Source: Chloroflexota bacterium
GTDB lineage: Bacteria > Chloroflexota > Dehalococcoidia > UBA2979
Assembly (NCBI GenBank): GCA_009839925.1
Contig: VXOS01000142.1
Coordinates: forward strand, 3,039-67,038
Direction of reading: 5' to 3'
Length of the DNA: 64,000 nt
Shown: positions 30,126-58,629 of the stretch, piece by piece
Layout of the letters: the number at the start of each line of letters is the position of its first letter
Numbering within the stretch: the first letter of the stretch is position 1
The notes under the pieces: model-generated
The model's database searches: none
Told to the model about the DNA's origin: nothing
What the model saw: the letters and a program-made list of their open reading frames with translations, nothing else
Position numbers and translations under genes: made by a program

Positions 30126-30186
30126 CTCCCGCAGCACGCGCGTGCCGCGCGCGCTATCATCGCCTCCCTCCCCCGGAACCACTGCG

Positions 30187-31140
30187 ATGACCACCACCGC
30201 CGTCCCGAGGACCGTGAGCGCCGATCCGGCGTCGTCGGCGCCGGGTGTCTTCTCCTCGCGGATGCTGCGCGAGGCGATCCGCTCCGGGCGCATCTCGCCG
30301 AAGCGGATCGCGGCGGCGCAGATCCAGCCGGCGAGCATCGATCTGCGGCTGGGCGCGAAGGCCTACCGGCTGCGCAGCAGCTTCCTGCCCGGGCCGAACG
30401 CCCGCGTGCGGGATCGGCTGCCGGAGCTGCAGATGGGCGCGCCGCTCGACCTCGCGGACCCGGAAGGCGTGGTCCTCGAGCCGGGCCGGCCCTACCTCGT
30501 GAAGCTGATGGAGAGCGTGCGGCTGCCTGAGGGCGCGATCGGGCGCACCAACCCGCGCAGCTCCACCGGCCGGCTCGACGTCTTTACGCGTGTGATCAGC
30601 GACCACGGGACGCAGTTCGACGAGGTCGAGCCGGGCTACGAGGGTCCGCTCTGGCTCGAGGTCTACTCCAACACCTTCACCGTGAACGTGCGCCAGGGCC
30701 TCGCGCTGACGCAGCTGCGGATCTCCTCGGGCGACTCGTGGCTGGACGCCGCCGCGATCCGCGAACTGCACGCGCGCGAGGGCCTCGTCTTCGAGCGCGG
30801 GCGGTCCGCACGTGCGCCTCGCGAGCCTGTCGAGGAGCCGAGGATCGGCCAGCGCGGGTTGCTCGTCAGCGTCGATCTGCCGGGCGGGCAGTTCTGCGGC
30901 TGGCGGGCGAAGCGCAACAGTGCGCTGCTCGACCTCGCGAGCACCGACGCCTACGACCCGTTCGACTACTGGGAGCCGGTCTTCGCCGAGCCGGGCGGGC
31001 GGCTGGTCATCCAGCCGGGCGACTTCCACCTGCTGATCACCCGGGAGTTCGTGAGCATCCCGCCCGAGGTCGCGGCGGAGATGGTGGCCTACGACCCGAC
31101 CAACGGCGAGCTGCGCACGCACTACGCCGGTTGTCGTTAG
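30187..31140 (+). CDS. 2'-deoxycytidine 5'-triphosphate deaminase, long DCD family
   Basis: Start MTTTAVPR. QIQPASIDLRLG and GRTNPRSSTGRLDV are dUTPase-fold dCTP deaminase motifs, duplicated in a ~318-aa protein. Confidence 0.65.
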   Translation: MTTTAVPRTVSADPASSAPGVFSSRMLREAIRSGRISPKRIAAAQIQPASIDLRLGAKAYRLRSSFLPGPNARVRDRLPELQMGAPLDLADPEGVVLEPGRPYLVKLMESVRLPEGAIGRTNPRSSTGRLDVFTRVISDHGTQFDEVEPGYEGPLWLEVYSNTFTVNVRQGLALTQLRISSGDSWLDAAAIRELHAREGLVFERGRSARAPREPVEEPRIGQRGLLVSVDLPGGQFCGWRAKRNSALLDLASTDAYDPFDYWEPVFAEPGGRLVIQPGDFHLLITREFVSIPPEVAAEMVAYDPTNGELRTHYAGCR

Positions 31141-31563
31141 GGTTTCTCAGTGTTGATCCTCTTTCCTCCGAACGAGCTTAAGTACAGCAAGAGATCCGGT
31201 TTCAGCTTGATCTTCGGGGCGAGCACCTTATGTAGTGCCAAGAATTTTTGAAATTCGCGGAGGCCGTTTGGGATGGGTTGGCGGGGCTCTAGGGGAGGGG
31301 CGTTGGCTGGCAGCGAGGCTGGCGGTCGCGTCCGGCGCAGTTGGTGGCGCGGGTGCCGCAGCTCCAGCTAGGTTCCTCCGTCTGCACCGCGCGCGGGCGT
31401 GCCCAGCGCCTCAGATCCAACACGCGGTCGCGCACACTCTCGCGCTCACGTCGCAGGGTAGCCGGATGCAAGGAATGCGCCGCCTCGACGAGCTCTGGGC
31501 TGTAGAGCCAACCTCAACTAACTCAGCACCCGGCGGATGCGTGTCAACCGGCGGAACTCAGTT

Positions 31564-31598
31564 GGAAGGGGTCGCCCAGCGACCCCTTCCCTTTCTCC
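31564..31598 (+). terminator. Perfect 12-bp GC-rich hairpin (GGAAGGGGTCGC-CCA-GCGACCCCTTCC) followed by CTTTCTCC. Terminator-like or 5'-leader regulatory stem ~50 nt upstream of the CoiA-like gene.
   Basis: Inverted repeat read directly from the sequence, 31564-31590, plus a pyrimidine-rich tail. Confidence 0.3.
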
Positions 31599-31641
31599 CC
31601 CTGCGCAACCCAGCACCCGGCGCAGCAGTACCCTCTTGACC

Positions 31642-32730
31642 ATGCCGCAGATTCAGTACCCGGTCGCTCTGGACGGGCGGTTCGCCGTAACTATCCGAGC
31701 AGCTATGTCTGGTCACAGCTACCGTTGCCCTGGCTGCGAAGAGCGCATGGTTGCCCGCCAGGGGGCTCGGCGCCAATGGCACTTTGCGCATCACCGATCG
31801 GTTGCGGCGTGCGAGCCGGATCGCGCGCTTCATCAATCAGCGCAGGTATTGATCGCGACATCGCTCGAGGCAGCGCTCCGTGCAGGGACGCGATACCACG
31901 TGCTGCTCCAATGTCCCGGCTGCGGCGATCGACAAGCCCGGAATCTCGCCCAGTCCGGCTCCCGAGTCGAGTGCGAGGCAACCATCGTGCCGCGCGTCCG
32001 TACGGATGTCGCGATCCTGCGCGATTCGGCCTTGCCGATCGCGATCGAAGTGGTGGTGACGCACGGCATCGAGCCGGAAACACGCCAGCGCTACAAGGAC
32101 GCCAGGATCGCCGTCATCGTCGTCGAGCCAACGTGGGACACGTTGCCCGAATTGCGTTCCAGAATCGTGCCTGCGCGGACCCTGAATGTCCCATCCTGGC
32201 AATGCACGTCGTGCACCGTGGCGGAAGAGCGCCGTGACGCAGCGCATCGGCGCGCCGATGCGCTTCTGGGGTGTCTCGACAATCGCGTGCCTCACCACGG
32301 TGAGGAGCTGCCGTTCCACCCGTGGCGACACGATCGCTTCGAGCGCGCCTTGCGGCCGTTGGTCCGTGCGCGTACCCACGCAGGCGCCCTGATACTCAGC
32401 GAGCTCGGGTTCCGGCAGTCCCGAGCCAAACCGTGGCTGTTTCTCCTCGAGTTGGAGCGCGGACGGACGGTGTTCGTCAACTACGGGTCAACCGCCGAGA
32501 TCCCCATCTGGGAAGACACGGCAGGGGTCCTCTCCTGGGTGTTTCGGAAGCAGGTCACGCCCGAGGAGGAAGCGGCCATCATCGCCGGAGTCCTGGAACG
32601 ATGCCGTCGCGCCGGCGTGGATCTCCGTGTGAGCTTCTACCGAGGGAGTTTCGACCCGGGCAGGCCGGAGAGGCCGACCGACCCGCGGGCACTCGTCGAC
32701 CGAGCGGTGCTTGCGCGCGTTCTCCGATGA
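31642..32730 (+). CDS. CoiA-like competence-family protein (Zn-finger + putative PD-(D/E)xK nuclease)
   Basis: Start MPQIQYPV. CPGCEERMVARQGARRQWHFAHH matches the CoiA N-terminal CxxC...HFAH signature. A second CPGC follows, with RTDVAIL...IAIEVV nuclease-like strands. Confidence 0.55.
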   Translation: MPQIQYPVALDGRFAVTIRAAMSGHSYRCPGCEERMVARQGARRQWHFAHHRSVAACEPDRALHQSAQVLIATSLEAALRAGTRYHVLLQCPGCGDRQARNLAQSGSRVECEATIVPRVRTDVAILRDSALPIAIEVVVTHGIEPETRQRYKDARIAVIVVEPTWDTLPELRSRIVPARTLNVPSWQCTSCTVAEERRDAAHRRADALLGCLDNRVPHHGEELPFHPWRHDRFERALRPLVRARTHAGALILSELGFRQSRAKPWLFLLELERGRTVFVNYGSTAEIPIWEDTAGVLSWVFRKQVTPEEEAAIIAGVLERCRRAGVDLRVSFYRGSFDPGRPERPTDPRALVDRAVLARVLR

Positions 32731-32808
32731 GGCCGGCCTTCGGGCCGGCGGTGTGGCCAGTGCTGCCCAGCGGTGTTGCGGAAGCGGTTACATCGCTGAT
32801 CCGGCAAT

Positions 32809-35800
32809 ATGGGCAGAGACGCGCCGACATCGGTCCTGTCCGCATGCCAGTGGTGCTCCGTGGATGCAATCCTGCCTGCTGACGTTCTTCCGCTACTCAT
32901 TCAGCTCGTGCCTGACGGGATCCGCGCGCTGCGCGCTCGTGATCCCGATGTCGTGGAGTCGGCGATAGTCGCCACGTCTGGGGTGTACCCGTCGATCGAA
33001 ATCGACGCGGCACTCCGGAAGTGGGCGGAGACTGCAGGTTTCGACGCTCTCATCGATCGGCTCGAGCAGGGCCAACGTAACGTTATTGATGCGGACGTGG
33101 TCCGTTCGTTCGTTGAAGAGGGCGACTTCTACCTGCCCGATGCTGAGGATCGAGACGACACGGCGGCGTCCGTGCTCTCTACACTCGCCCACCACTTGGT
33201 GGATGCACTGCTCCAGAGCAGCGGCGGACTAGCAGTGCTGGCAAATCGCATCGAGAAGCTCAGTGCTGAGAGTCAGGAGGCAACTACTACCCACATCGAC
33301 GCGGGCTTCGCTGCCATACAGGATCAACAGGAACAACTCCTCGCGGTGCTTCAGTCGTCCGCTGCGGTAGCCCTGCCGGGGGAGTCGGATGACGAGGCGG
33401 CGGCCGACCCGGAGTACGGCAACCTCGCAGCGCAACTCGAATCAGCGCGGGAACTGATCGCATCGGGAAAGGCCGCTTCGGCGCGTCCTCTCCTCGAGCT
33501 ACTCAAAGGCAGCGCTCAGGATGCGCCAGAGGACCTCCAATCCCGCGTTCTCACAAGCCTCGGAGCCTGCGCGCTCACACGCGGCGACATCGAGGAGGGC
33601 TGCACCTACTTGGAGGAGGCGCACAGGCTCCGCCCGGACAAGCCGGAAGCCCTCGCGAATGCCGCAGTGGCTGCCCGGCTTCGAGGCGATTCTCATCGCG
33701 CCATCGAATTGGCCCAACGATCACTCGAACTGAAGCCACAAGACGCACACGCCGCGTCCGTCCTAGCGGAATCCCTCTGGACGGCCCGCGAGAGCGAGCG
33801 ACTCGATGAGTTGGTCGTTGCTGAGAACTGGATGGTTGACGAGCCGCAATGCGCGGTCGCGCTCGCAGCGATCTGGACCGAACAGGGTCGCTTCGATGAA
33901 GCGATCGGTCTCTCACGGCGAATCGCCAAGCGCGAGGCGGAGGACTATGAAGCACGCCTTGTGCTCGCGGCGAGCCTGCTCACGGCTTCCCAGGCCCGCC
34001 AGGCCGCCGACACCGTCGCCTGGTGCCGTGAAGCGGAGTGCCAGGCCACTGGGGCGCTCAGGTTGCTGGAAGACAAGGAACTTCCGACGCAACGTCTCCA
34101 GGCTCTGAGCATCCGGGCCGGGGCCCGGCTGCTTCTTGGTGATCACGAAGGAGCCTTGAGTGATATCGACGCCGCACTCCGCGATGTCCCGGACGACTCG
34201 GGCGCGCTCCTTAACAAGGGTTTGGTATTCCTCGAGGCCGGCCGGTTCCCGGAGGCGCGAGCCTCGTTCGAACTCATCACGGACCCCGGTCTTGCCGCCA
34301 GGGCTCTCGTGCCCCACGCGACCGCATGCCACTGGTCAGGTGACGCGGCCGCGGCGGCCGGGTTGCTTCGTGGTCAGTTCTCCCTCAACCGGGGCGACTG
34401 GAACGACATCCACCGGGCCGAGCTGCTGTGCGAGGCTGAGGCGGCGCTCGGCGGTGAGGACTCGGTCCGGAGCTTGCTTGAACAAGCTCTGGAACAGAGG
34501 CCCGGGGACCCACGGCTGTTTGCCGTGGTCGCAACGCGCCATGAACTTCGTGGTGAGTACGACGCTGCGGAGGCCTCGCTCATGCAGGCGGTCGACCTCG
34601 CATCGGAGCCGGATCGCCACGAGCTCGTATGGCGGATCGCCAACTTCCACGCACGGCGGGAGCGCTACTCTGATGCGGCTGACGGGTACATCGAGGTTGT
34701 TGGAGGCGATGCCTCACATACGGCAGCGCTGGCACTCCTTCGCAGTCTCCAGAGCAGCGGAAGGTTACGCGAGGCACTCTCGTGGGCCCGAACGATTCGC
34801 GAGTCGCAGCACCTGCCGGCAAAGCTGGTCGTCGAAACCGAGGCGCAAGTCCTCAACTACGTGGGCGATGTCTCGGCGGCCGCCGAGCGCTGGGCCGACA
34901 TCTGTTCGCGCCCCGACGCAACGATGCTGGACGAAACGAGGCTAGCGCAGGCGTTGCTGTGGAGCGGGGAGCACGACTCGGCGACCGCTGCCGTTCGGGC
35001 AATCGACGCCTCGGAACTCCGGGACCATCCGCGAGAACTGCTCAACCTGGCGCGACTCAAGCACCTCCTTGGTGAAGAGGGCTACCTGGAGGACGCGTAC
35101 GCCGCCCTCCGGTACGGGCCCGACGATCCATCGATCCACCTCGGCTACTTCGCGCTGTGCCTCAACGAGGAAGATGATGCTCCTGGACCGGAGACGGTCG
35201 AGCCCGGTTACGCTGTGTTGCTCCGAGAAGGCTCCGAAGAGCGATGGTGGCGCATCCTCGAACACGGCGAAGAGCGACGTTCGGAGCACGAACTACTGCC
35301 CACCGAAGACCTAGCGCGTGCTCTCGTGGGCCGTGGGCGCGGTGATTCGGTGGTGCTTCAGGAGGGGATCGGGGCGCTCTCTGCCGAGGTCGTGGACATC
35401 CAGACCAAGTACGTTCGGGCGGCTCAGGAATCCACCGAAGCGTTCTCGACGCGATTCCCGGGCAACACCGACCTGACGCGCGTCCCCGTCGATGTCGATG
35501 ACTTGTCCAACATTCGCAGCCTCGTCAGTCAACGGGATGAGTTCGGTCGCGAGATCCTGAAGCTATATCAGGCGGACAAGGTGCCATTCGCCTTCCTGTG
35601 CGCCAAGCTCGGACGCCCGACGCCTGAAATCTGGCGCGCGAGCACCGCGAGCGGCGAGATCAGGATCCGCATTGGTGATGGGACTGAGATCGAATCTGCG
35701 CGGGCGGCCGAGTCGCTGCGCCGCGCCGACAGTATCGTGCTGGATATGGTCGCCCTGCTTACGATGCATGCGCTCGACCTGGGGGAATGCCTGCGCGCGC

Positions 35801-36660
35801 GGTTCGATCGCATCGGCGTGCCTCAGCAAGTTCTCGATGAAGTCCGGACGCTACTGTACGAAGTCACCCTGGGGAAGCGACCTCGAGCGACCCTCGCCAG
35901 GAACACCGACGGCTCGCCCGTGTTGCTCGAGGTTTCCGATCAGGAGTGGGCCGACCGCCAGGAGTTCGCCCGATCGCTTCTCGAGTTCGCCTCATCGTTC
36001 GAGACGATCGCGTCGTACCCCGTTCTCGATGTCGAACCGGATCACCTCGAAGCGCTTGCCGATCTAGTTACTCAGTCTGGTGTAGGGGCCCTCTACGCCG
36101 GCGATGAAGCCGCCCCCGAACGGCCGCTTCTCGTCTCGGACGATCTTGGGCTGGCCAATCTGACTCGCGCACTCGGGGGCGAGGCTGTGAACACACAGGC
36201 GGTGCTGCTGGAGCTGCACCGCGAGCGCATCCTGACGGACATGGAGTACTCCGGGCTCATCGCCCGCCTCGCTCAGTTGGGGTACCGGTTCGTCCGTCTG
36301 GACGCGGAGGACATCCTGCGGCTTCTGGAAGCCAACGGCTACATGACCGATGAGGCGACACGCGCATTGCTCGCGACAATCGAGGATCCGGAGTGCTCCA
36401 ACGAATCCGCGGTGTCTGTCACAGCCGAATTGATCGCGGCGCTGAGCGCACGGGGTCTTCCGCAACAGCAGGAGACGCTCCTCATCTCAGTGATTCTTGG
36501 GCATCTCCACGGCGGGCGCAGGACCACGCGGGCGCTGTACGAGTGCCTGTCCCAGCTCGAGATCAGGCTTGGACACGTTCCTACGGTGAGGGGGCGGGTC
36601 CTCGCTTCGGTGACCGACTACATTCGAATTGTGATGGGTGATCCGGATCTTGCGCTGTGA
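32809..36660 (+). CDS. Very large (1,283 aa) TPR-repeat protein with unknown N- and C-terminal domains
   Basis: Continuous ORF. Central region has repeated A/L-rich helical TPR-like units. C-terminal ~450 aa has Asp-containing blocks (SIVLDMVALL, PLLVSDDLGLANL) that could be PIN-like. Start codon uncertain. Confidence 0.6.
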   Translation: MGRDAPTSVLSACQWCSVDAILPADVLPLLIQLVPDGIRALRARDPDVVESAIVATSGVYPSIEIDAALRKWAETAGFDALIDRLEQGQRNVIDADVVRSFVEEGDFYLPDAEDRDDTAASVLSTLAHHLVDALLQSSGGLAVLANRIEKLSAESQEATTTHIDAGFAAIQDQQEQLLAVLQSSAAVALPGESDDEAAADPEYGNLAAQLESARELIASGKAASARPLLELLKGSAQDAPEDLQSRVLTSLGACALTRGDIEEGCTYLEEAHRLRPDKPEALANAAVAARLRGDSHRAIELAQRSLELKPQDAHAASVLAESLWTARESERLDELVVAENWMVDEPQCAVALAAIWTEQGRFDEAIGLSRRIAKREAEDYEARLVLAASLLTASQARQAADTVAWCREAECQATGALRLLEDKELPTQRLQALSIRAGARLLLGDHEGALSDIDAALRDVPDDSGALLNKGLVFLEAGRFPEARASFELITDPGLAARALVPHATACHWSGDAAAAAGLLRGQFSLNRGDWNDIHRAELLCEAEAALGGEDSVRSLLEQALEQRPGDPRLFAVVATRHELRGEYDAAEASLMQAVDLASEPDRHELVWRIANFHARRERYSDAADGYIEVVGGDASHTAALALLRSLQSSGRLREALSWARTIRESQHLPAKLVVETEAQVLNYVGDVSAAAERWADICSRPDATMLDETRLAQALLWSGEHDSATAAVRAIDASELRDHPRELLNLARLKHLLGEEGYLEDAYAALRYGPDDPSIHLGYFALCLNEEDDAPGPETVEPGYAVLLREGSEERWWRILEHGEERRSEHELLPTEDLARALVGRGRGDSVVLQEGIGALSAEVVDIQTKYVRAAQESTEAFSTRFPGNTDLTRVPVDVDDLSNIRSLVSQRDEFGREILKLYQADKVPFAFLCAKLGRPTPEIWRASTASGEIRIRIGDGTEIESARAAESLRRADSIVLDMVALLTMHALDLGECLRARFDRIGVPQQVLDEVRTLLYEVTLGKRPRATLARNTDGSPVLLEVSDQEWADRQEFARSLLEFASSFETIASYPVLDVEPDHLEALADLVTQSGVGALYAGDEAAPERPLLVSDDLGLANLTRALGGEAVNTQAVLLELHRERILTDMEYSGLIARLAQLGYRFVRLDAEDILRLLEANGYMTDEATRALLATIEDPECSNESAVSVTAELIAALSARGLPQQQETLLISVILGHLHGGRRTTRALYECLSQLEIRLGHVPTVRGRVLASVTDYIRIVMGDPDLAL

Positions 36661-36834
36661 GAGGGGAGCGGCCGCGCGTGTTCAGGATTTGGGCGAGGCG
36701 GTCGAGCAGCGCCATGGTCAGCTTCTCGTCGCCGAAGACCGGCACCCACTCGCTGGAGGGGCCGGGTTGGATGTGCGATCCGCAGAGATTCGGCCCCAAC
36801 GTTAGGACCTTTACGGCACGGTGGCCGATGCTGC

Positions 36835-37401
36835 TTAGCGGTGGTAGTCGGTGTGGCCGCGGCTCGCGGTCGGGCCCGTCTGGCCTTGGTACTTCGAGCG
36901 CAACTCGGGGGAGCCATACGGCCGCTCCGAGGGGGTCGTGAGTTCGAGGAAGGAGAGCTGGCCGATCTTCATTCCGTAGTAGAGCCGGATCGGCAGGTTC
37001 GCGACGTTCGAGAGCTCCATCGTCAGGTGACCGTCCCAACCCGAGTCGACGTATCCGGCTGTGCTGTGGATCAAAAGCCCTAGCCGGCCCAACGATGACT
37101 TGCCCTCGACTCGCGCGACGATGTCATCGCCGAGTGTCACGCGCTCAAGGGTGGAACCCAGCACGAATTCGCCCGGGTGCAAGACGAACGGTTCGTCGTC
37201 TCCGACCGTTTCCAGTTCGGTGAGATTCGCGGTCGATTCGCGCACGTCGATGTACGAGTCGCGGTGGTTGCGGAAGACGCGGAACTGGCGGTCGAGACGG
37301 ATGTCCACAGAGGCTGGCTGCAACGCGTCTTCGGCGAGCGGTTCGATGACGATCCTGCCCGATCCGAGCGCTTCGCGGATCGATCGGTCGGAGAGAACCA
37401 C
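36835..37401 (-). CDS. dcd: dCTP deaminase (canonical short form)
   Basis: 188 aa. [23 protein letters not shown] and [20 protein letters not shown] motifs. Confidence 0.85.
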
Positions 37402-37755
37402 AGGTCATTCCTCGAATCGGGGGAGCCCACAGATGCTACCGCGTGGACCATCGTGTGAACAGGCTAGAGGCCGACGATGAACGATCGCTGCACCTACCGC
37501 GTCGCCTGGTCAGGATAGGGAGAGTGCGTGGACCCGGGCCTGGAGTTACCCGCTCCTCGGCTGGCCGGCGCCGCGACCAACAGGCGCGCTCGCTAGGCGA
37601 GAGCCGAGAACCGATCAGGAGGATCCGGGGCCCGGGCGGGGACGGCGACTGCGGGGCGATCATCCTTGATGCTAGGCTTGCGGCGGAGTGAGGCGGTTCG
37701 AGATGAGACACCGTCGGCGGCATCACCAAGCGCATAGACGTACCGGGGCGAGCTG

Positions 37756-38013
37756 ATGCTGGAGCACAAGGGTTACGTCGGCGAAGTCGTGTACGACGAC
37801 CAGGCGGAGGTGCTGCACGTCCGCGTGACAAACAGCGGTTCCTACCCGATCGCGAACGCCGAGGCGACCGACGTCAAGGGCGTCACGCGGGAGTTCTGGC
37901 GGTCCATCGACGAGTACCTCGACGGATGCATGGAACTCGGCATCGACCCCGCGGCACCCACGCAGGTTCCGCCCAGACACGAGCGGGCTGATTGGCTGGT
38001 GGCGCCCGAGTAG
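37756..38013 (+). CDS. HicB-family antitoxin N-terminal-domain protein; no HicA partner nearby
   Basis: 85 aa. KGYVGEVVYDDQAEVLHVRVTN...EFWRSIDEYLDGC matches the HicB-like (DUF1902) fold. Confidence 0.55.
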   Translation: MLEHKGYVGEVVYDDQAEVLHVRVTNSGSYPIANAEATDVKGVTREFWRSIDEYLDGCMELGIDPAAPTQVPPRHERADWLVAPE

Positions 38014-38192
38014 CCCGCGGTGTGATGGCGCCGGCCGCTCTCGTGGCAACAGATTCAATAATGCGATCCGAGCGATGCGGGTCGGCCCCGCTCACACGTA
38101 TGATGCGCCGGACGATGTGAGAGTGGGTTGCGTTCTCTAGGGGGCGACCCACCAAGCACGGTCCGGTCACGGAGGCATCGGGAGGAGGCGCC

Positions 38193-38696
38193 TTGTCCAT
38201 CTTCAGGTTCGGGAAAGCTGCTTGGTTCACGCTAGTGACCCTGGGATACCTCTACGTTGGCGGGGCAGTGACTCTTGGCTGGTGGCCCGTTGGGGCACCG
38301 GCCGACCCGGGAATCGGGGTCTGGTTCTGCTGCTGGGCAGCGGGCGGACTCGGCGCGACCTTGGATGCAGTGCGGGGCCTGTACTGGTCGGTTGGCCTTG
38401 AACGGGCCGGTCGTCCACTTCCCATTCTCGATCCGTCGTCGACCTGGTGGTATGTCGTGCGCCCCCTGGCCGGCAGCCTCCTCGGCCTAGTGGGCTACGT
38501 CGCCGTGCGCCTGGTGCTGAGTCCGCTCAACGTACCCGCACCGGTCGATGAGCAATCGATGTTGCCGTTCGTTGCCGTCGCGTTCGCCGCTGGGTTCGGC
38601 TTGATGCGACTCATCGAGTGGCGCGACCGGACGGTAGACAACCTGTTCAGCGAGAGCGAGCGGTTGCTCAGTGATGAAATCGTCCTTCGACGCTGA
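38193..38696 (+). CDS. Hypothetical integral membrane protein (about 4 TM helices)
   Basis: 167 aa with four hydrophobic stretches rich in W/G. Confidence 0.5.
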   Translation: MSIFRFGKAAWFTLVTLGYLYVGGAVTLGWWPVGAPADPGIGVWFCCWAAGGLGATLDAVRGLYWSVGLERAGRPLPILDPSSTWWYVVRPLAGSLLGLVGYVAVRLVLSPLNVPAPVDEQSMLPFVAVAFAAGFGLMRLIEWRDRTVDNLFSESERLLSDEIVLRR

Positions 38697-39181
38697 GCTC
38701 GGATCACTGTGACCGCCTGCTGAAGGGGAGGTTCGGGAACTCGAGCGACGCTCTTGAGGACCGAGGAACACTCACCTCGACCCTTCGCATTGCAGCGCCT
38801 TCCGGCCAGCGAGCCCGCGAGATCGACGCTGCGGTCGGGACCGGCGCCTCTTACATCGCGATACCCGCCCCGTGGCCGCGGGAGGTGGGAGTTGAACCGT
38901 TCGGCGCGCGGGGGCTGCTGCTTGCCAATGGACGGCACGACCGCGCGGACATCGGGCAAGCGCCGGCAACGTTCCGGCGCTCAAGGCGTCAGGCTGGTGA
39001 GGACCGACCCGACTGCCGCCGCCCGGCGGACCCAGCCAATAGTTACTTCCGGTGCTCAGCCAGCGCACCCTGCACACTCGATGCGAGGGCGGCCCGAAGC
39101 GGAATCGAACCGTCCGTAGGTCAGAGAATCAAAAGGGTCTCGGCCGCGGTGACGAACCGCACGACAGTCTGCCCAGGCTGA
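38678..39181 (+). pseudogene. Retropepsin-like (clan AA) aspartic protease remnant; no start codon and active-site Asp replaced
   Basis: The frame reads EIDAAVGTGASYIAIP...LLLANGR...IGQAP, which resembles bacterial retropepsin-like proteases (DTGAS becomes GTGAS). No ATG/GTG/TTG start in frame. Confidence 0.3.
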
Positions 39182-39384
39182 AGCCCCTCCTCGACGAGAC
39201 AAGAAAGGACGGTTTCGAAGTCAGGATCGTGAGCGACCACCTCGCCATCCCACACGGCGATCCACTGCTCGGGGTACTGCTCAGTCAGGCGCGGCTCCAT
39301 CTCTGAGAACGCCGCGGCGTCGGCGCTGAACCGGCGCAGATTCTCGGATGCAGTCTCGAGCGAAAGGACCTGTTCCAGCGTCAT
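39121..39384 (-). CDS. Small hypothetical protein (DUF5678-like)
   Basis: 87 aa. QWIAVWDGEVVAHDPDFETV...GQTVVRFV resembles small antitoxin-like DUF5678 proteins. Confidence 0.4.
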   Translation of the reverse strand: MTLEQVLSLETASENLRRFSADAAAFSEMEPRLTEQYPEQWIAVWDGEVVAHDPDFETVLSCLVEEGLQPGQTVVRFVTAAETLLIL

Positions 39385-39541
39385 GCGCGCGCTCCTTGCC
39401 GGGGCGAGGCTACCAGGCCGCAGAGGCCGCGGTGAGCAGGGCGAGGCCGGCCTTGAACGTGTCGGCTATCGGGAATTCCATTCGTCAGTCTCGGGAGCAC
39501 CTGAGGTGCATCCGGGTAGATGGACCCGCTCGACGGAAGGG

Positions 39542-39841
39542 TCAGCGTTCCCACGACGCCTTCTCCTCGTCCAGATACGCCTTGACCTCCTCGCCCGTCT
39601 GGAGCAGGTGGTCCTCAGGGCCACTGTTCAGGATCTCCATGATGGAGCGGCTCTTCGTGACGCTGGACTCGTGCAATATAACGATGTCGGCCGTCTGGCC
39701 CGCCTCCAGATCCTCGCTAACGATCTCGAGCTTGCCGCCCGGGCGCACAGTCAACGTCACTTCAGTGCCCTCTTCGATGTCGAGGGGCTCCGAGGGCGTA
39801 AGCACGCCATTGGCGTAGGTGGCCTTGACGGTGGTGGTCAT
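39542..39841 (-). CDS. DUF104/AF2212-like putative antitoxin
   Basis: 99 aa. The N-terminal VKATYANGVLTPSEPLDIEEGTEVTLTV matches the DUF104 antitoxin fold. Confidence 0.5.
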   Translation of the reverse strand: MTTTVKATYANGVLTPSEPLDIEEGTEVTLTVRPGGKLEIVSEDLEAGQTADIVILHESSVTKSRSIMEILNSGPEDHLLQTGEEVKAYLDEEKASWER

Positions 39842-40212
39842 CAGCCGGCCCTCCCGGTGCGCGCGTCACCACTCCCTATCCTATCGCGCCCGTCGACGCG
39901 GGCCGCTTCCAAGACGATGTTCGCGCCGAGCCGGTCAGTCTCGGCAAGGAGCAGGCGGGAACGCTCCGGCGTGCGCTTCGTCCAGCAGAAACGGGGCCAC
40001 CGGAACGTTCGTATCGACGGCTGAGATCACCGGCCGCGCATCTCTTCGATCAGTTCGTCTGTGCTGTCGTACCCCAGGTGGCTCCAGCGGCCTCCCCACT
40101 TGTCGAGCGGGTTCTCACCCACGTCCTTTCTCAGGACAGAATCCGGCGATGGCGGGCTGTGAATTCGCCTGACCTTGCCTCCTCCATCCCGCTCCGAACT
40201 TTGTACCTGCAC

Positions 40213-40250
40213 AATTTCAATCCCGGCAACTGGCCTCACGATCGTTCCGA
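40213..40250 (+). repeat. 38-bp direct repeat, left copy (ATTTCAATCCCGGCAACTGGCCTCACGATCGTTCCGAC). CRISPR-repeat-like: GTTTCAATCC... at the 5' end and ...GTTGCGAC at the 3' end.
   Basis: Matches the 41230-41266 copy at about 32 of 38 positions. 1,017 bp apart, bracketing the HsdS fragment and the DUF433/DUF5615 cassette. Confidence 0.5.
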
Positions 40251-40257
40251 CGAATGA

Positions 40258-40532
40258 CCAAGGCAACTGGCCGACAAGAGCGTACTAGATTCAATCCCGC
40301 GGCTCACACCTCCAGTTCCAGAACAAACCGCCATCGTTCGTTACCTCGACCACGAGATCGCAGTCACCGCTACGGGCATTGACCGCCCGCGCCGCATGAT
40401 CGAGTTGCTCGGCGAGTATCGCACCCGCCTCGTCGCCGACATAGTCACTGTAAGATTGACGTACGCGAGGCGGCGTCGCGTCTGCCGGACGAGGAAGGCA
40501 GCGGCCGCGGTTACAAAGAGCCCGGTGAGTGA
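40258..40532 (+). pseudogene. hsdS: Type I restriction-modification specificity subunit (HsdS) C-terminal fragment, frameshifted
   Basis: Reads ...IPRLTPPVPEQTAIVRYLDHEIAVTATGIDRPRRMIELLGEYRTRLVADIVT, then after a 1-nt frameshift (G)KIDVREAA. This is the conserved HsdS C-terminal coiled-coil with the TGKIDVRE tail. No target-recognition domain or start codon. Confidence 0.45.
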
Positions 40533-40558
40533 TCGGTGATCGAGAGCGAGGTGACGGC

Positions 40559-40780
40559 ATGACAGATTGGGAGAGCTGCCCCGCGGTCGAGAATGTGCCT
40601 GGCAGGGTCAGTGGCGCCTCCGTCTTCTCAGGGACACGGGTGCCCGTCGCGGCTCTGTTCGAGAACTTGGCGAGCGGGGCCACGGTGGAGGAGTTCCTAG
40701 ACTGGTTCCCGGGCGTCGAGGAGTGGCAGGTGCGCGCCGTTCTCGAGCACGGGGCGAATTCCCTCCGTGTACCCGCCTAG
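40559..40780 (+). CDS. DUF433-family antitoxin-like protein
   Basis: Start MTDWESCP. SGTRVPVAALFENLASGATVEEFLDWFPGV matches the DUF433 fold. Confidence 0.7.
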   Translation: MTDWESCPAVENVPGRVSGASVFSGTRVPVAALFENLASGATVEEFLDWFPGVEEWQVRAVLEHGANSLRVPA

Positions 40781-40782
40781 TC

Positions 40783-41133
40783 GTGAGGATCCTGTTCGAT
40801 CAAGGCACGCCCGCTCCTCTCCGGCGACACCTGGGCGACCATGAGGTCGATACGGTGGCGGAGCTGGGGTGGTCGGAGTTGGCTAACGGTGACTTGATCG
40901 CGACGGCCGAGGACGAGGGCTACGACATCGTCATCACCACCGATCAGAGCATGCGCTACCAGCAGAACCTCACCGGCCGGCGGCTGGCGATCGTGGTATT
41001 GCTGTCCACCGCATGGCCGTACGTGCGCTTGCGGACCGAGGAGATTCGCGAGGCCCTCGCTCAGGTACGCCCGGCCGAGTTCAGGGAAGTCGCCATTCCC
41101 CACGCGGACGCATCATCTGATCCGCCGGGCTAG
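40783..41133 (+). CDS. DUF5615-family PIN-like (Mut7-C-like) putative toxin
   Basis: GTG start 3 nt after the DUF433 stop. VRILFDQGTP...GDLIATAEDEGYDIVITTDQSMRYQQNL...AIVVL matches DUF5615. DUF433+DUF5615 is a recurrent two-gene cassette. Confidence 0.7.
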   Translation: MRILFDQGTPAPLRRHLGDHEVDTVAELGWSELANGDLIATAEDEGYDIVITTDQSMRYQQNLTGRRLAIVVLLSTAWPYVRLRTEEIREALAQVRPAEFREVAIPHADASSDPPG

Positions 41134-41229
41134 TCGCGCTCAGCGATTGGGCTCCCCGCTGGGGGCGGCGTCCACTGGCTGCGCTCGACGAAGGCCGGGG
41201 GTTGCTGAAGTCTCACAACGCAACGACCC

Positions 41230-41266
41230 GTTTCAATCCCCGCGGCCGCCTCACGATCGTTGCGAC
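41230..41266 (+). repeat. 37-bp direct repeat, right copy (GTTTCAATCCCCGCGGCCGCCTCACGATCGTTGCGAC)
   Basis: See the left copy at 40213-40250. Confidence 0.5.
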
Positions 41267-41301
41267 AACGATGTAGGCGGCGAACCCAGTCAACCCTGCG
41301 A

Positions 41302-41395
41302 GTTTCAATCCCGCGGCGAGCGGCCGCGCTACGGCGGGCAACATGCGCTGCTGAATGAGTTTCGACCCCGCACTTCTGCCCGCCCGCAGAAAGTT
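41302..41395 (+). repeat. Two further degenerate partial copies of the GTTTC(A/G)A(T/C)CCCGC... repeat (at 41302 and 41359). A shorter copy (GATTCAATCCCGCGGCTCAC) lies at 40288.
   Basis: Shared 5' core GTTTCAATCCCGCGGC. Unit spacing 72 and 57 bp downstream of the 41230 copy. Confidence 0.35.
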
Positions 41396-41636
41396 GGCAC
41401 ACTCACCGTGTCTGGCACCGATCCCGGTCCGCCCTGGTCCCGATCGCCACGTGCACCAAGAAGGGACCGACCATGTCCGGCACGTAGGCCGCGCCTTCTG
41501 GTTGCGGTCGTGGCGCAGGAGAGGGGATCCAGCGTCTGGGGGTGACCGGCTGGCAGCCAGACCGCAGCGCATCAAACGGGACGTAGTCCTCCTCGTCGGA
41601 GGCAGCGCGTGCCGCCCGGACCGCCGAGACGCAGGC

Positions 41637-42275
41637 TCAGGCGCCGGCGATGTCGAGCGGCCAGACCCTCACGACCTTGCCGTCCTCGACCTCGAAGCGC
41701 CATTCATCCCCCTCCCGACACTCGCCGTTCGGGCAAATGCCGAGGAACCGCATCTCTCGCTGGCGGCCGGACACGCCGCGCAGCTCCGCGACGGGCTCGT
41801 TCGTCTGGTAGGAGTGGACGTTGGAGCCCGTCTCGCCCATGAAGTAGACCTGGAACTCGCCCTGGTACTCGGTCCCGCAGTGCGGACAGGTCACGTCGGC
41901 GAGCAGCATCCAGTACTTCTCGAGCTCCGCGAGTTCGTGCTCCAGATCGACCTCGAGCACGCTGAAGCTCGTCTCGATCGCGTCGGCCGGCGGGTCGATC
42001 CCCTCCGCGGCCAGCCTGGCTTCCATCTCCCCGCGGAGGGGATCAGCCAGGATCCGGGCGTGCTCCACCATCGCGTCGGCGACGGAGCTCGTTGCGGGCG
42101 GAACGGGGTCGCCGTCATCCATCAGGGCCTCGATGTGGATGGCGATGGCCTCGCGCATCATGCGGTTCATGTCCTCCAGGTCGTCGCCCACGCTGATGCA
42201 GCCGGGGAGATCCGGGACATACCCGCAGTAGTTCTCATCACCGCGCTCGTACACGACCACGTACTGGACCTTCAT
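41637..42275 (-). CDS. HicB-family N-domain fused to a C-terminal Cys-rich (zinc-ribbon-like) domain
   Basis: Start MKVQYVVVYERGDENYCGYVPDLPGCISVGDDLEDMNRMMREAIAIHIEAL (HicB/UPF0150 fold). C-terminus has CPHCGTEY...CPNGEC. Divergent from the STAND gene. Confidence 0.6.
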   Translation of the reverse strand: MKVQYVVVYERGDENYCGYVPDLPGCISVGDDLEDMNRMMREAIAIHIEALMDDGDPVPPATSSVADAMVEHARILADPLRGEMEARLAAEGIDPPADAIETSFSVLEVDLEHELAELEKYWMLLADVTCPHCGTEYQGEFQVYFMGETGSNVHSYQTNEPVAELRGVSGRQREMRFLGICPNGECREGDEWRFEVEDGKVVRVWPLDIAGA

Positions 42276-42429
42276 CGGGATTCTCCCTTGCAGTCCAGCA
42301 TGCCCAGCACGTTGCTGTGCGCCCCTCGGACGCCGCATCATCGGGGTCGGCATCCTAGCAGTTCGCCTCGGGGCGGTGACATGATACGGTTCAAATGTTC
42401 TAGAGGGAGCCAGAAGTTCCGAGGGTAAA

Positions 42430-45400
42430 GTGACCAGGGCACGAACGAGAACGGCCGCCAGGCGATCCGGTGATGACTATCAGGATCTGGTGGCGGCGGA
42501 AGCCATGCTCCGCGTCCTCAGGCATCCGTCACGGTACCGCTGGGTCAAGCTTGAGGCCCGCGAAGCCGGCCGATTGGACGACGTCTTCGTCTATCGCATC
42601 GACGGTACCGTTGAGGCGACACAGGTCAAGTTCTCCACGGACGCTCTGCGCCCTGGCGATCCTTGGACGTGGGACAAACTCCTCGAGGAGACGAATGGCC
42701 GACCATCTCTGATCCGCGCTTGGTACGAGTCGGTTGTAGGCCTGGACCCCACACATCAGGCGACGGAGCCGCGGCTTGTCTCGAATCGACTTGGGGGAGA
42801 CGACCTACTGCTCACTGAGGACGGCTATGTCGACCGCAATCGCACCGCTCCTGTGGTCCTGGAGAGACTGCGCGCTCAGCTGGGTGACGGCAGCGATGAC
42901 TTCCTCCGACGGTTCCGCTTCGAGGTTGGAGAGCAAGACCTACGAGACTTGAACGATCGGCTCGCACGGGAATTCCGGGCCCTTGGGCTGCTTGAGCAGA
43001 ACTGGGTGGCTCTCAAGGACGCCATCAGAGGGTGGATCCGCGGTGAAGGATTGCCGGAGACGGGTGAAATCAGCACTGAGCACATCAGGTCAGCGTCCGG
43101 GTGGCGGCAACTCTCGCCGTTGCCGCAGGGCCTAGAGATCCCGCGCGACTACACACTTCCGCTCCAAGGGTTCCACGACGACTTCCTCAGCAGTGTCACG
43201 CAGGGCGCCGGATCTGCAATCGTCCTGACTGCAGGCCCCGGCATGGGGAAGAGCACTTACCTCAGTTACCTGGTTGAGAAGCTCCACGAACAAGAACAAC
43301 CAGTTGTCAGGCACCACTACTCGTTGCGGGCCAGCGGCGATCGCCCAGAACGCCTCGAGGCGAGGCGTGCAGCTGAGTCTCTCGTGGCAGACATCGAGAC
43401 TTGCCTAAGTCCTTACGTCCACGAACTTCCCACCCAGAATCCCGATCCTGGCGCGCTGCGAGCTTGGCTTGATGGCGTCGGGGCGCAGCTCGCCGATGAG
43501 GGCAAGTTCCTGGTGGTGGTGGTTGATGGCTTGGACCACGTGTGGCGGGCAAGGAACTCCCGTGAAGAGCTCCAGAAGTTGTTCGACCAACTCCTTCCAG
43601 CACCTCCGGGCATCGTGGTAGTCGTTGGCACGCAGCCGGTTGAGGATCAGCAGCTTCCGCCTTCGCTACTTCGATTCGCACCCAGAGAGCAGTGGATCGA
43701 GTTGCCCCGACTCGATAGGCAAGCCATCCGTGAGTGGTTGACTCATCATCGCGACCTCATGCCAGCGGAGTGGGCCCCGCGCGGCATGGGCTGGCACCAC
43801 GCAGAACTGGCAAGAGTGCTCCATGCTCGGACACGAGGCCATCCCCTCTTGATGCGCTACACCGTCGAGCAGGTCGCAAGCCGAGGCGAGAGCCTGACGA
43901 CGAACTCAATCCGTGTAATCCCCGAAGCGCCAGCGGGCACAGTCGAGGACTACTACCGAGCTCTTTGGGTGAGTCTCCCGGACGCGGCTAGAGACGTCGT
44001 CTTCCTGTTGGCCGTGGCGAGGTTTCCTTGGCCAGAAGGAGGTCTCCATGAGTGCCTCCGGCTTGTCGGCTATGAGCAGGCCAGCGCTTCGATGGCGGTC
44101 AGTGCGACCCGTCACCTTCTCGCCGACGACGGACTTGGATGGTCGCCCTTCCATAGCAGTCTTCTCCTGTACGCGGGGCAGCAGGCGGCGTTCGTGGAGC
44201 GCGAGCCCGCACTCCGCCAGGCGGCAATCGAATGGCTGGAAGGCGCGGCATCGGAGTACTGGCGAAGATCCCATCTCTGGCTTCTACAGCTCGATGCGGG
44301 CGATGCCGACCACCTGATGGCGGGTTCCGCTCGTGAGTGGGTCGTCGAGGCCGTTGCTGCCAGCCATCCGCTGGGCGAGATCGAAGATGTACTACGGGCA
44401 GCTGCCTTCGAGGCAATTGAGCAGGCAGACCTGACGACATACGTGGACCGGGGCATTCTGGCCGATACCGTGGACAGAAGCGCCAGCGACGAGGACGCGT
44501 TGCGGTGGATGTTCGCCGCGCAACTCTCGCTCGGGGCAGACGACTTCTTGGAGCCGCGAGCGATTGCGAGACTGAGCGAGCTGAGCGACCGGCACGTGAT
44601 CGCGTTGGCGCGGCATCTGCACCTTTCAGGGAGACCAGAGGCGGTCGAGAGGTGTTTCGATGAGCTTAAGCGGCGGCTTGCGCGAGAGGCCGCCGATCTT
44701 CGGTGGTTCGGGGAGCAACGAGAGCGGAGAGAGACCGTCGCTGAACTCGCTGGGCTTGCTGGAATCGAGCCCGAGAGGTTCGCGAGGTTTGCGGCCAGCC
44801 TTGGGTCCGAAGACATGCAGGCATCTCTGGCGACCAACTGGGTCGCGGGACTACGCCGCGCCCGCGAGGTCCGGTTCGCCCTTCGAGCCCTGGCCGAACC
44901 GCTCAGCGCCGCTGCCGCGCGCCGCCTATCCTGCCATGTGGCAATGGTTGGGGCTGACGAGGGGATCGCGCTGTCGGAGCCCGACTGCCAGTTGCTCGCT
45001 TCGCCCTACGCCTGGGTGTATCGCATGTTCCATGAAGGAGACCCCGGAGGGGTTGCGACAGAGGAGCCGCCCGCTCCAGCGGCTGGAAGAGACTACGCGT
45101 TCGAGCAGTATCCCGGAGTCGTTGCGCGATACGCGCATGACTTGTTCTTCTTCATCGTAGTCCGCGAGTTCCAGTCGCCTGGCTTTGCCGGCCGGTGGGC
45201 ACCGCCGGCAACTCTTCGCTCGTGGCTGACATCGTCGCTAGAAGCTCTCGCGCAGGGCGCAGTCGCGGTGGCGGAAGCCTGGAAGCACTCTCAGGAAGTC
45301 GATGTGGTTGCAGGCTACGAGGCCACCCGGCCGCTGAAGACCCCACCCTGGGACGACGGAATGGAGGACCGAGAAAGCTCAACGGGTATACGACGAGCGC

Positions 45401-46806: not shown

Positions 46807-48263
46807 TCGAACTGCTTGTTGACCGCCTGCGATGGCCAGCCCCGCTCGTTCGCGAACGTGCGGCATCGCAGCTCGGCGACCGTATAGCGGCCGGCGACGA
46901 TGGGGCCGTTCAAGCGCTGCTCGTCTGGATCGCCGACCAAGAGCTCGAGAGTCTCGCAGCGATCGGCCTGCTTCCGTTCCTACACGCAGCGGGGAGGGCG
47001 GACGCAAACTCGCCGTCAACAAGTAGGATCGCTTCGGCCGTTAGGGCCCGCTCCGTCTTGTCGGAGCTGTACCTCGGTCACCTCGACCCCTCCTACACGA
47101 GTAACCCGAGCCTCGGTCGGCACTCTGGATTGCCGCCCAGTTCGTGGGTGCCCCCAAGGACGAGTGCCGGCGCCCGAGAGGTATTCTTCGAAGAGATGAT
47201 CCGGGAACGCTTGGAGAGGGCCGCCCGGGTCTTCCAGGCACCTCTGGAAAGGCAGTTTGATTTTGAACTCTCGGTCTTGAGTGGCCGCCACGGCGAGTCG
47301 CCCGCGAGCGCTTACAGTGCAGCTGGACCCTACGAGAGTGGCTACCACCCCGGCTGGCGGCCTATCTCTGCGGAAACCCGCACTTCGGCATACCTGCGCG
47401 CCCTAGCGTGGGCAGCCTCGCACACGAGCGCGCCCGCGGATTGGCTCCTCGGCGCTGCAGCCAAGGTCTCCCCGGCCGATCTAGGCCTCTGGGGCGTGAG
47501 GCCGACTAAGGCTCCAGGCTGGTGGCCAAGCCTCGACACCCACGGCGACGCAAACGAGATCGATTCCGAAGTCGCGACAACGCTACGCAAGGTGAACGCG
47601 GCCGTGCAGGCGTGGCGGTCTGACGGCCACGCAGTACTCGCAGCGAGCGGATGCATCTCTCACACGAACCGCACGCAACATGATCTGGAAATCCGCGCGT
47701 TCTTCCAACGGACTGATGGGCCAAGCCGGCCGGGGAGCGAGCAACTGTTCGAGTACCTCAAATCAGTCCGATCGCCGTTTAGGCAGCGGCCGTCGCCGCT
47801 GCGGTTCGAAGGAGCGATCGGCGCGAATGGAGGTGCACAGGAACTCGCCGACTGGGTTGTAGTGCCTTGCTCGGGCTCGACCGGACCTCTCGCATTCATT
47901 GTCTGGCAGGGATGGCGTGGGCTTCGCGGCTTCCAATGCCCGTCGCCGGAATTGGTAGATGCAGAGATCCGAGCGATTTGCCGGCAGGACTCGGTCGACT
48001 ACGAGTGCGCCGGGGAACTCGTAGCCCAATGGACCGATTGGTCGGGGAGCCTCTCCGCGACCGCGGTGAGGGATCTCCTGCCTGCAAGTGGATGGGTTCT
48101 CGTCGCGCCTCAGGCCGTTGTCGACAGGTTCACGAGTGAAACTGGTATGGCGCTGGCCTGGGCGTGGGAGGTCACGAGTCGCTTCCGTGACTACGCCCAT
48201 GGAGAGTTCATAGTGCACCGGGCGCACGGCGATCATGGCACGACCATGGTAATCCGACCGTGA
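46803..48263 (+). CDS. Hypothetical 486-aa protein translationally coupled (ATGA overlap) to the STAND NTPase
   Basis: Start ATG overlaps the STAND stop. No recognisable motif. Non-repetitive composition. Confidence 0.5.
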   Translation: MIELLVDRLRWPAPLVRERAASQLGDRIAAGDDGAVQALLVWIADQELESLAAIGLLPFLHAAGRADANSPSTSRIASAVRARSVLSELYLGHLDPSYTSNPSLGRHSGLPPSSWVPPRTSAGAREVFFEEMIRERLERAARVFQAPLERQFDFELSVLSGRHGESPASAYSAAGPYESGYHPGWRPISAETRTSAYLRALAWAASHTSAPADWLLGAAAKVSPADLGLWGVRPTKAPGWWPSLDTHGDANEIDSEVATTLRKVNAAVQAWRSDGHAVLAASGCISHTNRTQHDLEIRAFFQRTDGPSRPGSEQLFEYLKSVRSPFRQRPSPLRFEGAIGANGGAQELADWVVVPCSGSTGPLAFIVWQGWRGLRGFQCPSPELVDAEIRAICRQDSVDYECAGELVAQWTDWSGSLSATAVRDLLPASGWVLVAPQAVVDRFTSETGMALAWAWEVTSRFRDYAHGEFIVHRAHGDHGTTMVIRP

Positions 48264-48388
48264 TCGGCGATCGGCTGCCCAGCGTCGGAACAGCCCGAGT
48301 CAGGAACGGTGTAGGGCAGTGGCACTGTTACAGAAGACGTCATCGGGCTCTTCGATTGGCAAGCTCGATCGGCCACGCATAGGGGGAA

Positions 48389-54750: not shown

Positions 54751-54772
54751 CGCCTCGCCACCGCGACTGGTA

Positions 54773-56529: not shown

Positions 56530-56541
56530 GTCCTGCCCCAG

Positions 56542-58262: not shown

Positions 58263-58629
58263 CCCCGTCCTCGTCTTCCCACTCCGAGCCCAACGGAGGA
58301 AGCTCGAGGGTCGGCACCGCCTGCGTGATGCCCTGCTCCGCAGCACGACCCGACTCGCGCGTCCCTTCAGTGTTGAATTCGACTACGCCCCCGCCAGGGA
58401 GCAGCAGCCTTTGGGCGAATGGAAGGAGCGGTGCGACAAGCAGTCCCGCGAGCAGCATGAGGGTTTCGGTCGTCGGCTCGACTTCCTTACCGAAGTCGAG
58501 CGAGCGTATGACCACCGACGCGGCGAACAGAGTTACGGCCAACGCCCACACGAAGTAGATCCACCCGAGGAGCTTCCTGAGCCATCTAGGGAATTCGGCT
58601 AGTCTTAGCACGTTTTCCGGCTCTCCCAC
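58255..58629 (-). CDS. Small membrane protein (2 TM), first gene of the GTPase operon
   Basis: 124 aa. LLGWIYFVWALAVTLFAASVVI and LMLLAGLLVAPLLPF hydrophobic helices. Confidence 0.45.
   Translation of the reverse strand: MGEPENVLRLAEFPRWLRKLLGWIYFVWALAVTLFAASVVIRSLDFGKEVEPTTETLMLLAGLLVAPLLPFAQRLLLPGGGVVEFNTEGTRESGRAAEQGITQAVPTLELPPLGSEWEDEDGDG

Follow-up and report, generated by a model that had tools for sequence, protein, structure and literature searches.

The 64,000-nt window analysed here (positions 3,039 to 67,038 of the forward strand of contig VXOS01000142.1, Chloroflexota assembly GCA_009839925.1) contains a defence island, at the leading edge of which two same-strand open reading frames (ORFs) lie side by side. 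The first, gene A, encodes a predicted zinc-finger nuclease, and the second, gene B, a large tetratricopeptide-repeat (TPR) protein assigned by sequence to the TGP (TPR-GreA/B-C-PIN) family. An earlier note, made from the letters of this stretch, had proposed that the two form a sensor/effector pair. Its coordinates for both genes, their 78-bp spacing and their position just after a drop in GC content were recovered: the GC content is 0.724 at 30-31 kb, only 0.649 at 31-32 kb, and between 0.61 and 0.70 from there to the window end, and the two ORFs that follow the drop occupy 31537/31642-32730 (+) and 32809-36660 (+, 1283 residues).

Gene A (31642..32730 (+), 362 residues) is 100% identical to MYB42497.1, for which NCBI gives a longer call of 397 residues; the predicted start at 31642 is supported by the family alignment. 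Gene B (32809..36660 (+)) is 100% identical to MYB42498.1 (P0001), and both database entries come from a Chloroflexi metagenome-assembled genome (MAG) of the same assembly. For the TGP protein, translation probably starts at the GTG at 32860 rather than at the annotated ATG at 32809, because a 1-nt indel throws this ATG out of frame in a 92% identical copy of the locus on another contig (L002; window 32809-32860, L002 2649-2700) and because the residue encoded at 32860 is the one with which the alignment of the TGP family opens. The first 17 or so residues of the annotated protein are unconserved in a further copy (L079, protein P0002) and disordered in the structural model, and the GTG is common to the copies.

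A perfect 27-nt palindrome (31564..31590 (+), GGAAGGGGTCGC-CCA-GCGACCCCTTCC), detected as a blastn self-match, is located 52 bp upstream of the gene A start, within the longer 31537 reading frame, and is followed by CTTTCT. It is situated close to the left end of the conserved block described below, homology of which begins at 31579 in L002 and at 31478 in L079, and may represent a terminator-like or regulatory hairpin. The 85-bp stretch just 5' of the palindrome (31478-31560) was also found as an inverted copy beside a truncated gene A on another contig (L003). The intergenic spacer (32731..32808 (+)) measures 78 bp, or 129 bp if the TGP protein starts at 32860. It includes a GC-rich hairpin immediately after the gene A stop codon (-19.4 kcal/mol), which was considered as a terminator and dropped, since its stability is that of shuffled sequence (z = -0.41), no T tract follows it and it is degraded in L002; we count it as evidence neither way. 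No terminator or promoter consensus was found in the spacer, and no tRNA gene at the island edge.

Gene A, a predicted nuclease of the CoiA superfamily

The N-terminal part of gene A encodes a C2H2-type zinc finger of the CoiA_N family (31705..31800 (+), residues 22-53, CPGC...WHFAH; PF25164, E = 2.5e-9), which is its sole Pfam match and scores 36.9 bits against a cut-off of 26.3. CoiA_N was matched by all 25 aligned members of the gene A family, in which H47, F48 and H50 are invariant, and by most of the 33 homologues found. The nuclease core (31816..32136 (+), residues 59-165; secondary structure taken from the model) is arranged as helix 1, an inserted hairpin with C91xxC94, strands carrying E112, D122 and E136-V-V-V-T-H141, helix 2 and strand 4. 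D122, E136, C91, C94, C188 and C191 are invariant over the 25 homologues. The CxxC...HFAH finger and the nuclease-like core that had been noticed beforehand are thus both present. Downstream lies a C-terminal alpha/beta domain (32314..32676 (+), residues ~225-345) that matches no Pfam family and is conserved within the gene A family, with W228, D231, G256-F257-Q259, W265, G282 and R329 as its conserved residues.

The AlphaFold2 model of gene A reached a mean predicted local distance difference test (pLDDT) score of 92.5. A Foldseek comparison of this model with the PDB gave weak matches, mostly to PD-(D/E)xK enzymes (Bax1, VRR-NUC, NucS/EndoMS, AdnA and EcoRV), and the family profile found no match among PDB sequences. 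In PADLOC, gene A matched nothing but the zinc-finger region of DruB, and that weakly.

Whether gene A is a CoiA was addressed by comparison with three genuine Bacillota CoiA proteins, each of which carries PF25164, PF06054 and PF25166, with E-values of 1e-36 to 1e-42 for PF06054. Neither PF06054 nor PF25166 was detected in any of the 25 family members at E ≤ 1, so the alignment to PF06054 that the earlier note had called for was not obtained. The catalytic residues sought by that alignment were nevertheless recovered by profile-profile comparison: hhalign aligned the gene A family with genuine CoiA at 97.1% probability (E = 6e-11) over 127 columns that comprise the finger and the nuclease core, and D122 and E136 coincide with the Asp and Glu of the CoiA RADL and IEFQ motifs. 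In pneumococcal CoiA, D95 and E105 are essential (bioRxiv 10.1101/2024.02.06.579203). The C-terminal half of gene A stayed unaligned and is unrelated to CoiA_C.

Gene A thus resembles CoiA in its N-terminal C2H2 finger (WHFAH) followed by an atypical PD-(D/E)xK core, where strand 2 carries the Asp and strand 3 the Glu, and in its similar size and C-terminal extension. It differs in lacking PF06054 and PF25166, in having E-V-V instead of E-x-Q, in its C-terminal domain, and in two CxxC motifs, of which C91xxC94 lies in a 27-residue hairpin inserted before strand 1 relative to CoiA and C188xxC191 after the core. Together these four cysteines probably form a Cys4 zinc site, a zinc ribbon. The homologous core and the conserved D122 and E136, set against the differing insert, motif and C-terminus, therefore make gene A a predicted zinc-finger PD-(D/E)xK nuclease of the CoiA superfamily, with conserved catalytic residues, and not a CoiA orthologue. 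The reading of gene A as a CoiA-type zinc-finger nuclease, made from the sequence, was supported in this sense.

CoiA itself is a structure-specific endonuclease, a D-loop resolvase and partner of the RadA helicase, and is reported to be restricted to Bacillota (bioRxiv 10.1101/2024.02.06.579203). The gene A family, by contrast, was found in Chloroflexota and Acidimicrobiia, outside a competence context. No com genes turned up among the scanned ORFs of the window, and the suggestion that gene A stands apart from competence was borne out by this, by its Chloroflexota host and by the missing Pfam domains. By analogy with CoiA, gene A would probably catalyse a metal-dependent cleavage of structured or branched DNA through D122 and E136, the finger and the putative zinc ribbon would bind DNA, and SF1/SF2 helicases could be its partners.

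More precisely, members of the family were detected in Dehalococcoidia, other Chloroflexota, Caldilineaceae and Acidimicrobiales, and a scan with two peptide patterns only gave ~14 full-length matches among representative genomes of 185,579 species. Across 18 loci, no neighbour of gene A was conserved. The neighbours comprised toxin-antitoxin genes of the TacA/GNAT and HigB/A-like kinds, transposases and serine recombinases, and also an M78 peptidase/HTH pair, helicases and a large methylase. In a Dehalococcoidia MAG (DAOUJH010000017.1; L005 9944-13777 (+)), the nuclease is joined to a complete UvrD/PcrA helicase with UvrD-helicase, UvrD_C and PcrA tudor domains in one ORF of 1277 residues, and UvrD-like helicases adjoin gene A homologues at two other loci (L013 and L076). 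These arrangements hint at a nuclease-helicase partnership that would resemble that of CoiA with RadA. At another locus (L004), the homologue sits among ubiquinone-biosynthesis and tRNA-synthetase genes, a housekeeping-like setting. The distribution fits a sporadic accessory nuclease of variable regions rich in mobile elements or toxin-antitoxin genes, which may work with helicases and whose role may lie in defence, mobile-element biology or repair. What is modestly new here is a coherent branch of the CoiA superfamily, so far without a name, that extends the range of CoiA-type nucleases past Bacillota and past competence.

A separate family from Bacteroidales MAGs and isolates (L023-L058) matched gene A residues ~6-141 at 23-41% identity. 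This match covers the finger and the first half of the nuclease core, and the family would constitute another CoiA_N-bearing nuclease branch outside Bacillota.

The TGP protein and its N-terminal module

The TPR protein had been described as a scaffold with unassigned domains of ~190 residues at its N-terminus and ~450 residues at its C-terminus. Its central part is a TPR or helical-repeat array of about 575 residues (33421..35148 (+), residues ~205-780), in which Pfam TPR families (TPR_19, TPR_2, TPR_16, TPR_1 and others) span residues 243-663; the full-length profile, dominated by these repeats, matched TPR proteins of the PDB down to E = 1e-61.

The array is followed by a predicted GreA/GreB C-terminal domain, FKBP-like and RNA-polymerase-binding (35191..35403 (+), residues ~795-865). 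A profile of residues 785-880 built from 13 homologues had GreA, Gfh1 and GreB as its six best matches in the PDB (E. coli GreA 1grj, E = 9.4e-4; Gfh1, 5.6e-3; GreB, 8.7e-3). The protein's own match to PF01272 is below threshold (E = 0.068), over profile positions 5-76 of 77, and two homologues score 26.9 bits, which equals the cut-off (P0025), and 24.1 bits (P0021).

A PIN nuclease domain of the TGP type comes next (35737..36168 (+), residues 977-1120; PF20698, E = 2.9e-12); its score of 47.5 bits exceeds the cut-off of 27.8. Both D979 and D1112 are retained in 19 of 19 homologues, down to 22% identity, while D1111 is invariant in the 15 closer sequences and nearly so across the 19; D1010 and N1128 are nearly invariant in the alignments of this region. 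The PIN-like acidic blocks remarked upon in the C-terminal region were thereby confirmed. The protein ends with a conserved tail of about 160 residues (36169..36660 (+), residues 1121-1283 and the stop codon), with Y1147, Y1159, F1161, D1168, P1194-x-C1196 and G1236-R1237 conserved, for which Pfam gave nothing beyond a sub-threshold UBA match. The C-terminal ~450 residues thus consist of GreA/B-C, PIN and the conserved tail, and are therefore not unassigned.

By its TPR array, its GreA/B-C domain between the TPR and PIN domains, its PF20698 PIN domain and its variable N-terminal module, all recognised in the sequence, gene B is a TGP protein, a member of a known family of predicted anti-phage proteins. 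Kaur, Iyer, Burroughs and Aravind defined this architecture (eLife 2021, PMC8195603), and MYB42498.1 is itself listed in Figure 2-source data 1 of that work as 'TPR+GreAB-C+PIN*->', standalone and with unannotated neighbours. The idea of an unassigned scaffold therefore does not hold for this protein. The genes of the same clade are also standalone at five of five loci. No PADLOC model fits the TGP protein, and a search of PHROGs gave no useful match. The protein is already explained by the 2021 family and by the work on Bab/Agp, and little is new about it by itself.

The core order of TPR array, GreA/B-C and family PIN with acidic residues is shared with the TGP systems of Kaur et al. 2021 (PF20698), as are the variable N-terminal module and the occurrence as a single gene in a defence island. 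Two features set the present protein apart from them: the conserved tail beyond the PIN domain, and an N-terminal module that is helical, unannotated in the catalogue and none of EAD10, REase, HNH, TIR, PNPase or SIR2.

This N-terminal all-helical domain (32860..33378 (+), residues ~18-190) belongs to no assigned family, so that the N-terminal half of the earlier statement on unassigned termini stands. AlphaFold2 modelled it (pLDDT 77, with 86-95 in the core) as a bundle of ~7 helices and, after these, a single long helix. Structure prediction, which had been suggested for the terminal domains, thus yielded helices and no significant fold match in the PDB. No Pfam family was matched even at E ≤ 10, and neither sequence nor fold matched the described EAD or Death-like families. 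An exhaustive phmmer search returned 117 cluster representatives that carry the N-domain, nearly always at the N-terminus, most of them TGP proteins of ~1245-1297 residues. In two others (P0165 and P0172), the N-domain precedes NPHP3_N/AAA_16, a STAND-type NTPase, and HEAT repeats, and in a third (P0174) it is combined with HTH_upstream_double_PIN. A homologue search with the profile of the N-domain gave six proteins only, short and fragment-like, and no second copy was found within the 64-kb window. Sister TGP proteins bear other N-terminal modules, for example DUF4062 in P0025.

A module modelled as helical thus heads different scaffolds, as EADs do. Since the N-domain is found on TGP and STAND proteins and is replaced in sister TGP proteins, its distribution suggests an exchangeable module with an adaptor or effector role. 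The other N-modules of sister TGP proteins also imply that this domain would already fill the effector/adaptor slot of the family. We regard it as a candidate for a module of bacterial immune proteins that has yet to be described and would act as adaptor or effector; that a helical N-domain is common to TGP proteins and STAND NTPases is a modestly new observation.

Association of gene A with the TGP gene

Analysis by blastn showed that window 31579-36662 corresponds to L002 1416-6489 with 91.7% identity. The flanks of L002 on both sides had no match to the window at DNA or translated level. In L079, window 31478-36661 was matched at 86.5% identity, after which the match jumps to window 48398. 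Gene A and the TGP gene thus have at least two flank contexts. The pair was seen only in the window, L002 and L079, the two genes did not co-occur outside relatives that are at least 83% identical, and these three contigs may be only one or two independent observations. L003 was not counted as a case of gene A without a TGP gene, given that blastn revealed a 5'-truncated, rearranged remnant.

With 25 queries from the gene A family, no A-like gene was detected near the same-clade TGP genes (51-57% identity, same N-domain) at any of five loci, a small sample. Their neighbours were type I restriction-modification genes, GmrSD, an SNF2 helicase and transposases, and in one case (L001) glycine-cleavage genes. 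As TGP proteins with the same N-domain occur without gene A, the N-domain does not need it. Conversely, none of 64 genome loci with gene A relatives had a TGP gene within 10 kb. A metagenome scan with a narrower TGP alignment gave three loci, all 5'-truncated and without upstream context.

No domain shared by gene A and the TGP N-terminus was found (best BLASTP E = 1.5; hhalign probability of 0.2% for the two families). None of the 117 N-domain-bearing representatives contained an A-like sequence, and no fusion of gene A with a TGP protein was present among them. A BASS11-like resemblance between the C-terminus of gene A (VDRAVLARVL) and the N-terminus of the TGP protein (VDAILPADVL) was taken as chance, because BLASTP misses this similarity and each motif occurs in members without the other gene. 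A shared adaptor or motif and co-occurrence across lineages, the two marks of a two-gene TGP system, were thus both absent. On balance, the adjacency of gene A and the TGP gene is a property of one shallow lineage. The sensor/effector pairing proposed in the earlier note did not pass the co-occurrence test outside close relatives, and we consider a functional coupling of the two genes doubtful.

We therefore favour, with moderate confidence, a reading in which the two are separate cargo genes of the defence island, neighbours by chance in this lineage, gene B being a self-contained anti-phage TGP protein and gene A an independent nuclease. Following Kaur et al. 2021 and the work on Agp, the GreA/B-C domain would dock on the secondary channel of RNA polymerase; in line with the family literature, the TPR array would sense a phage-induced change and the PIN domain would cut transcripts. 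In a second-line response, for example oligomerisation or abortive infection, the N-terminal helical module may then take the part of adaptor or effector. Several points weigh against this reading. The two genes are on the same strand, 78-129 bp apart, without a convincing terminator between them, and constitute a sharply bounded 5.1-kb block in three contigs, with ends at 31478/31579 and 36661/36662. Since this block is shared with L002 despite unrelated flanks, the pair stayed together through at least one context change. The co-occurrence sample on the TGP side is limited to the five loci, and every mechanistic step given for the TGP protein is carried over from the family. In the catalogue of Kaur et al. 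2021 (PMC8195603), REase+TPR+GreAB-C+PIN is the commonest TGP architecture (the string occurs 1034 times, that is in about 517 rows, each of which prints it twice), and there are also operons in which an effector is encoded separately, upstream of the TGP gene, such as HetE-N1 then TGP. Bab then Agp is a further case of this arrangement. A separate PD-(D/E)xK nuclease gene upstream of a TGP gene fits this split effector-then-TGP pattern.

The common strand and short gap, the conserved block and the fused and split architectures argue for a lineage-specific two-gene cassette, in which the TGP protein would sense infection at RNA polymerase and license the CoiA-like DNase encoded upstream as a separate effector. 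Such a cassette, arranged like Bab/Agp, would be the REase+TPR+GreAB-C+PIN fusion in split form. In those fusions, a PD-(D/E)xK-fold nuclease also lies directly upstream of the TGP core; there it is in the same polypeptide and of a different REase family (DUF4365 in one row), whereas here the nuclease, of the CoiA superfamily, has a gene to itself and the TGP protein retains its own N-module. The one TGP system with an experimental test that we found in the literature, Bab/Agp of E. coli ECOR25, protects against phage T5, and mutation of the GreA/B-C domain of Agp abolishes the protection (bioRxiv 10.1101/2024.11.07.622273). It shows that a TGP protein can control an adjacent upstream effector, and in both loci the TGP gene is directly preceded on the same strand by a possible effector gene. 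Bab is, however, a Bell-like membrane-targeting protein of 109 residues and not a predicted nuclease of 362 residues, and the amyloid motif BASS11, common to Bab's C-terminus and Agp's N-terminus, has no counterpart here by BLASTP or hhalign. The validated and proposed split TGP systems all rely on such a shared element (BASS11 or EAD10), which, together with the missing co-occurrence, the TGP proteins that have the same N-domain and no gene A, the lack of fusions, the standalone entry in the catalogue and the few independent observations, leaves the cassette a tentative possibility. A more specific form, in which the 5.1-kb block is a two-gene defence module and the RNA-polymerase-docked TGP protein controls the DNase through a contact between its N-module and the C-terminal domain of gene A, with no shared domain, appears somewhat less likely still. 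If true, this module would be the first split 'REase + TGP' system, and a CoiA-type nuclease would for the first time have a role in defence, outside competence; a functional pair would mean that TGP sensors can make use of a nuclease effector that has a gene of its own.

The helicase associations of the family bear on a further explanation, in which gene A is a housekeeping nuclease of recombination or repair, unconnected with defence, that stands at the island edge incidentally; like CoiA or YraN, of which it would be a functional analogue, it would act with a helicase to resolve D-loops or branched DNA. The homology to CoiA, a D-loop resolvase acting with RadA, the UvrD/PcrA fusion, the UvrD-like helicases beside two homologues and the housekeeping-like context of L004 are consistent with it. 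We nevertheless find it improbable, as the family is sporadic in the representative genomes scanned with the two peptide patterns, has no conserved neighbourhood and lies mostly among toxin-antitoxin, transposase, restriction-modification and recombinase genes, and as gene A itself is inside the low-GC island and moves together with the TGP gene. If gene A were a true CoiA orthologue that acts in natural competence, the CoiA_N match and the core homology would be accounted for; the family-wide absence of PF06054 and PF25166, the putative zinc-ribbon insert, the EVV motif, the different C-terminal domain, a Chloroflexota MAG as host of a protein reported from Bacillota alone and the lack of com genes among the scanned ORFs make this explanation very improbable indeed. 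Two independent cargo genes thus remain the reading that we prefer.

Other genes of the island

The region is a defence island, as had been recognised from the sequence. Besides an Avs-like NACHT gene, its cargo includes a fusion of a PLD nuclease with an SNF2 helicase (48389-51880 (-), 1163 residues) and an Eco57I/MmeI-like methyltransferase with a TaqI_C specificity domain (61279-63978 (-), 899 residues). Between them lies a GTPase-centred conflict system of the type of Kaur et al. 2020 (52564-58346 (-)), with GAP1-N1 (794 residues), DO-GTPase1, DO-GTPase2, GASH and GAAD in a row.

The 11.7 kb at 36662-48397 are absent from L079, in which a homologue of window 48398-48559 follows the TGP gene after about 400 bp. 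The match of L079 jumps to 48398, so that these 11.7 kb are additional in the window; they come right behind the stop codon of the TGP gene and look like a separate insertion at this point. This segment contains a Dcd-like gene, several small ORFs without matches, an ORF with a weak DUF5615 match and the NACHT operon. The latter (41355-48263 (+)) consists of three genes with overlapping start and stop codons, which encode, in this order, a protein of 357 residues without match, a STAND/NACHT protein of 1458 residues, Avs1b-like and with an N-terminal PD-(D/E)xK effector (PADLOC E = 6.5e-17 and 3.5e-18), and a protein of 486 residues without match.

Two dCTP-deaminase-like genes flank the block formed by gene A and the TGP gene. 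On the high-GC side, a gene at 30142-31140 (+) encodes a two-domain protein of the PRK07559 type (332 residues, E = 1e-91). The other (36835-37401 (-), 188 residues) encodes a Dcd protein (PF22769, E = 6e-49) and lies inside the low-GC island, convergent with the TGP gene; dCTP deaminases can be defence genes.

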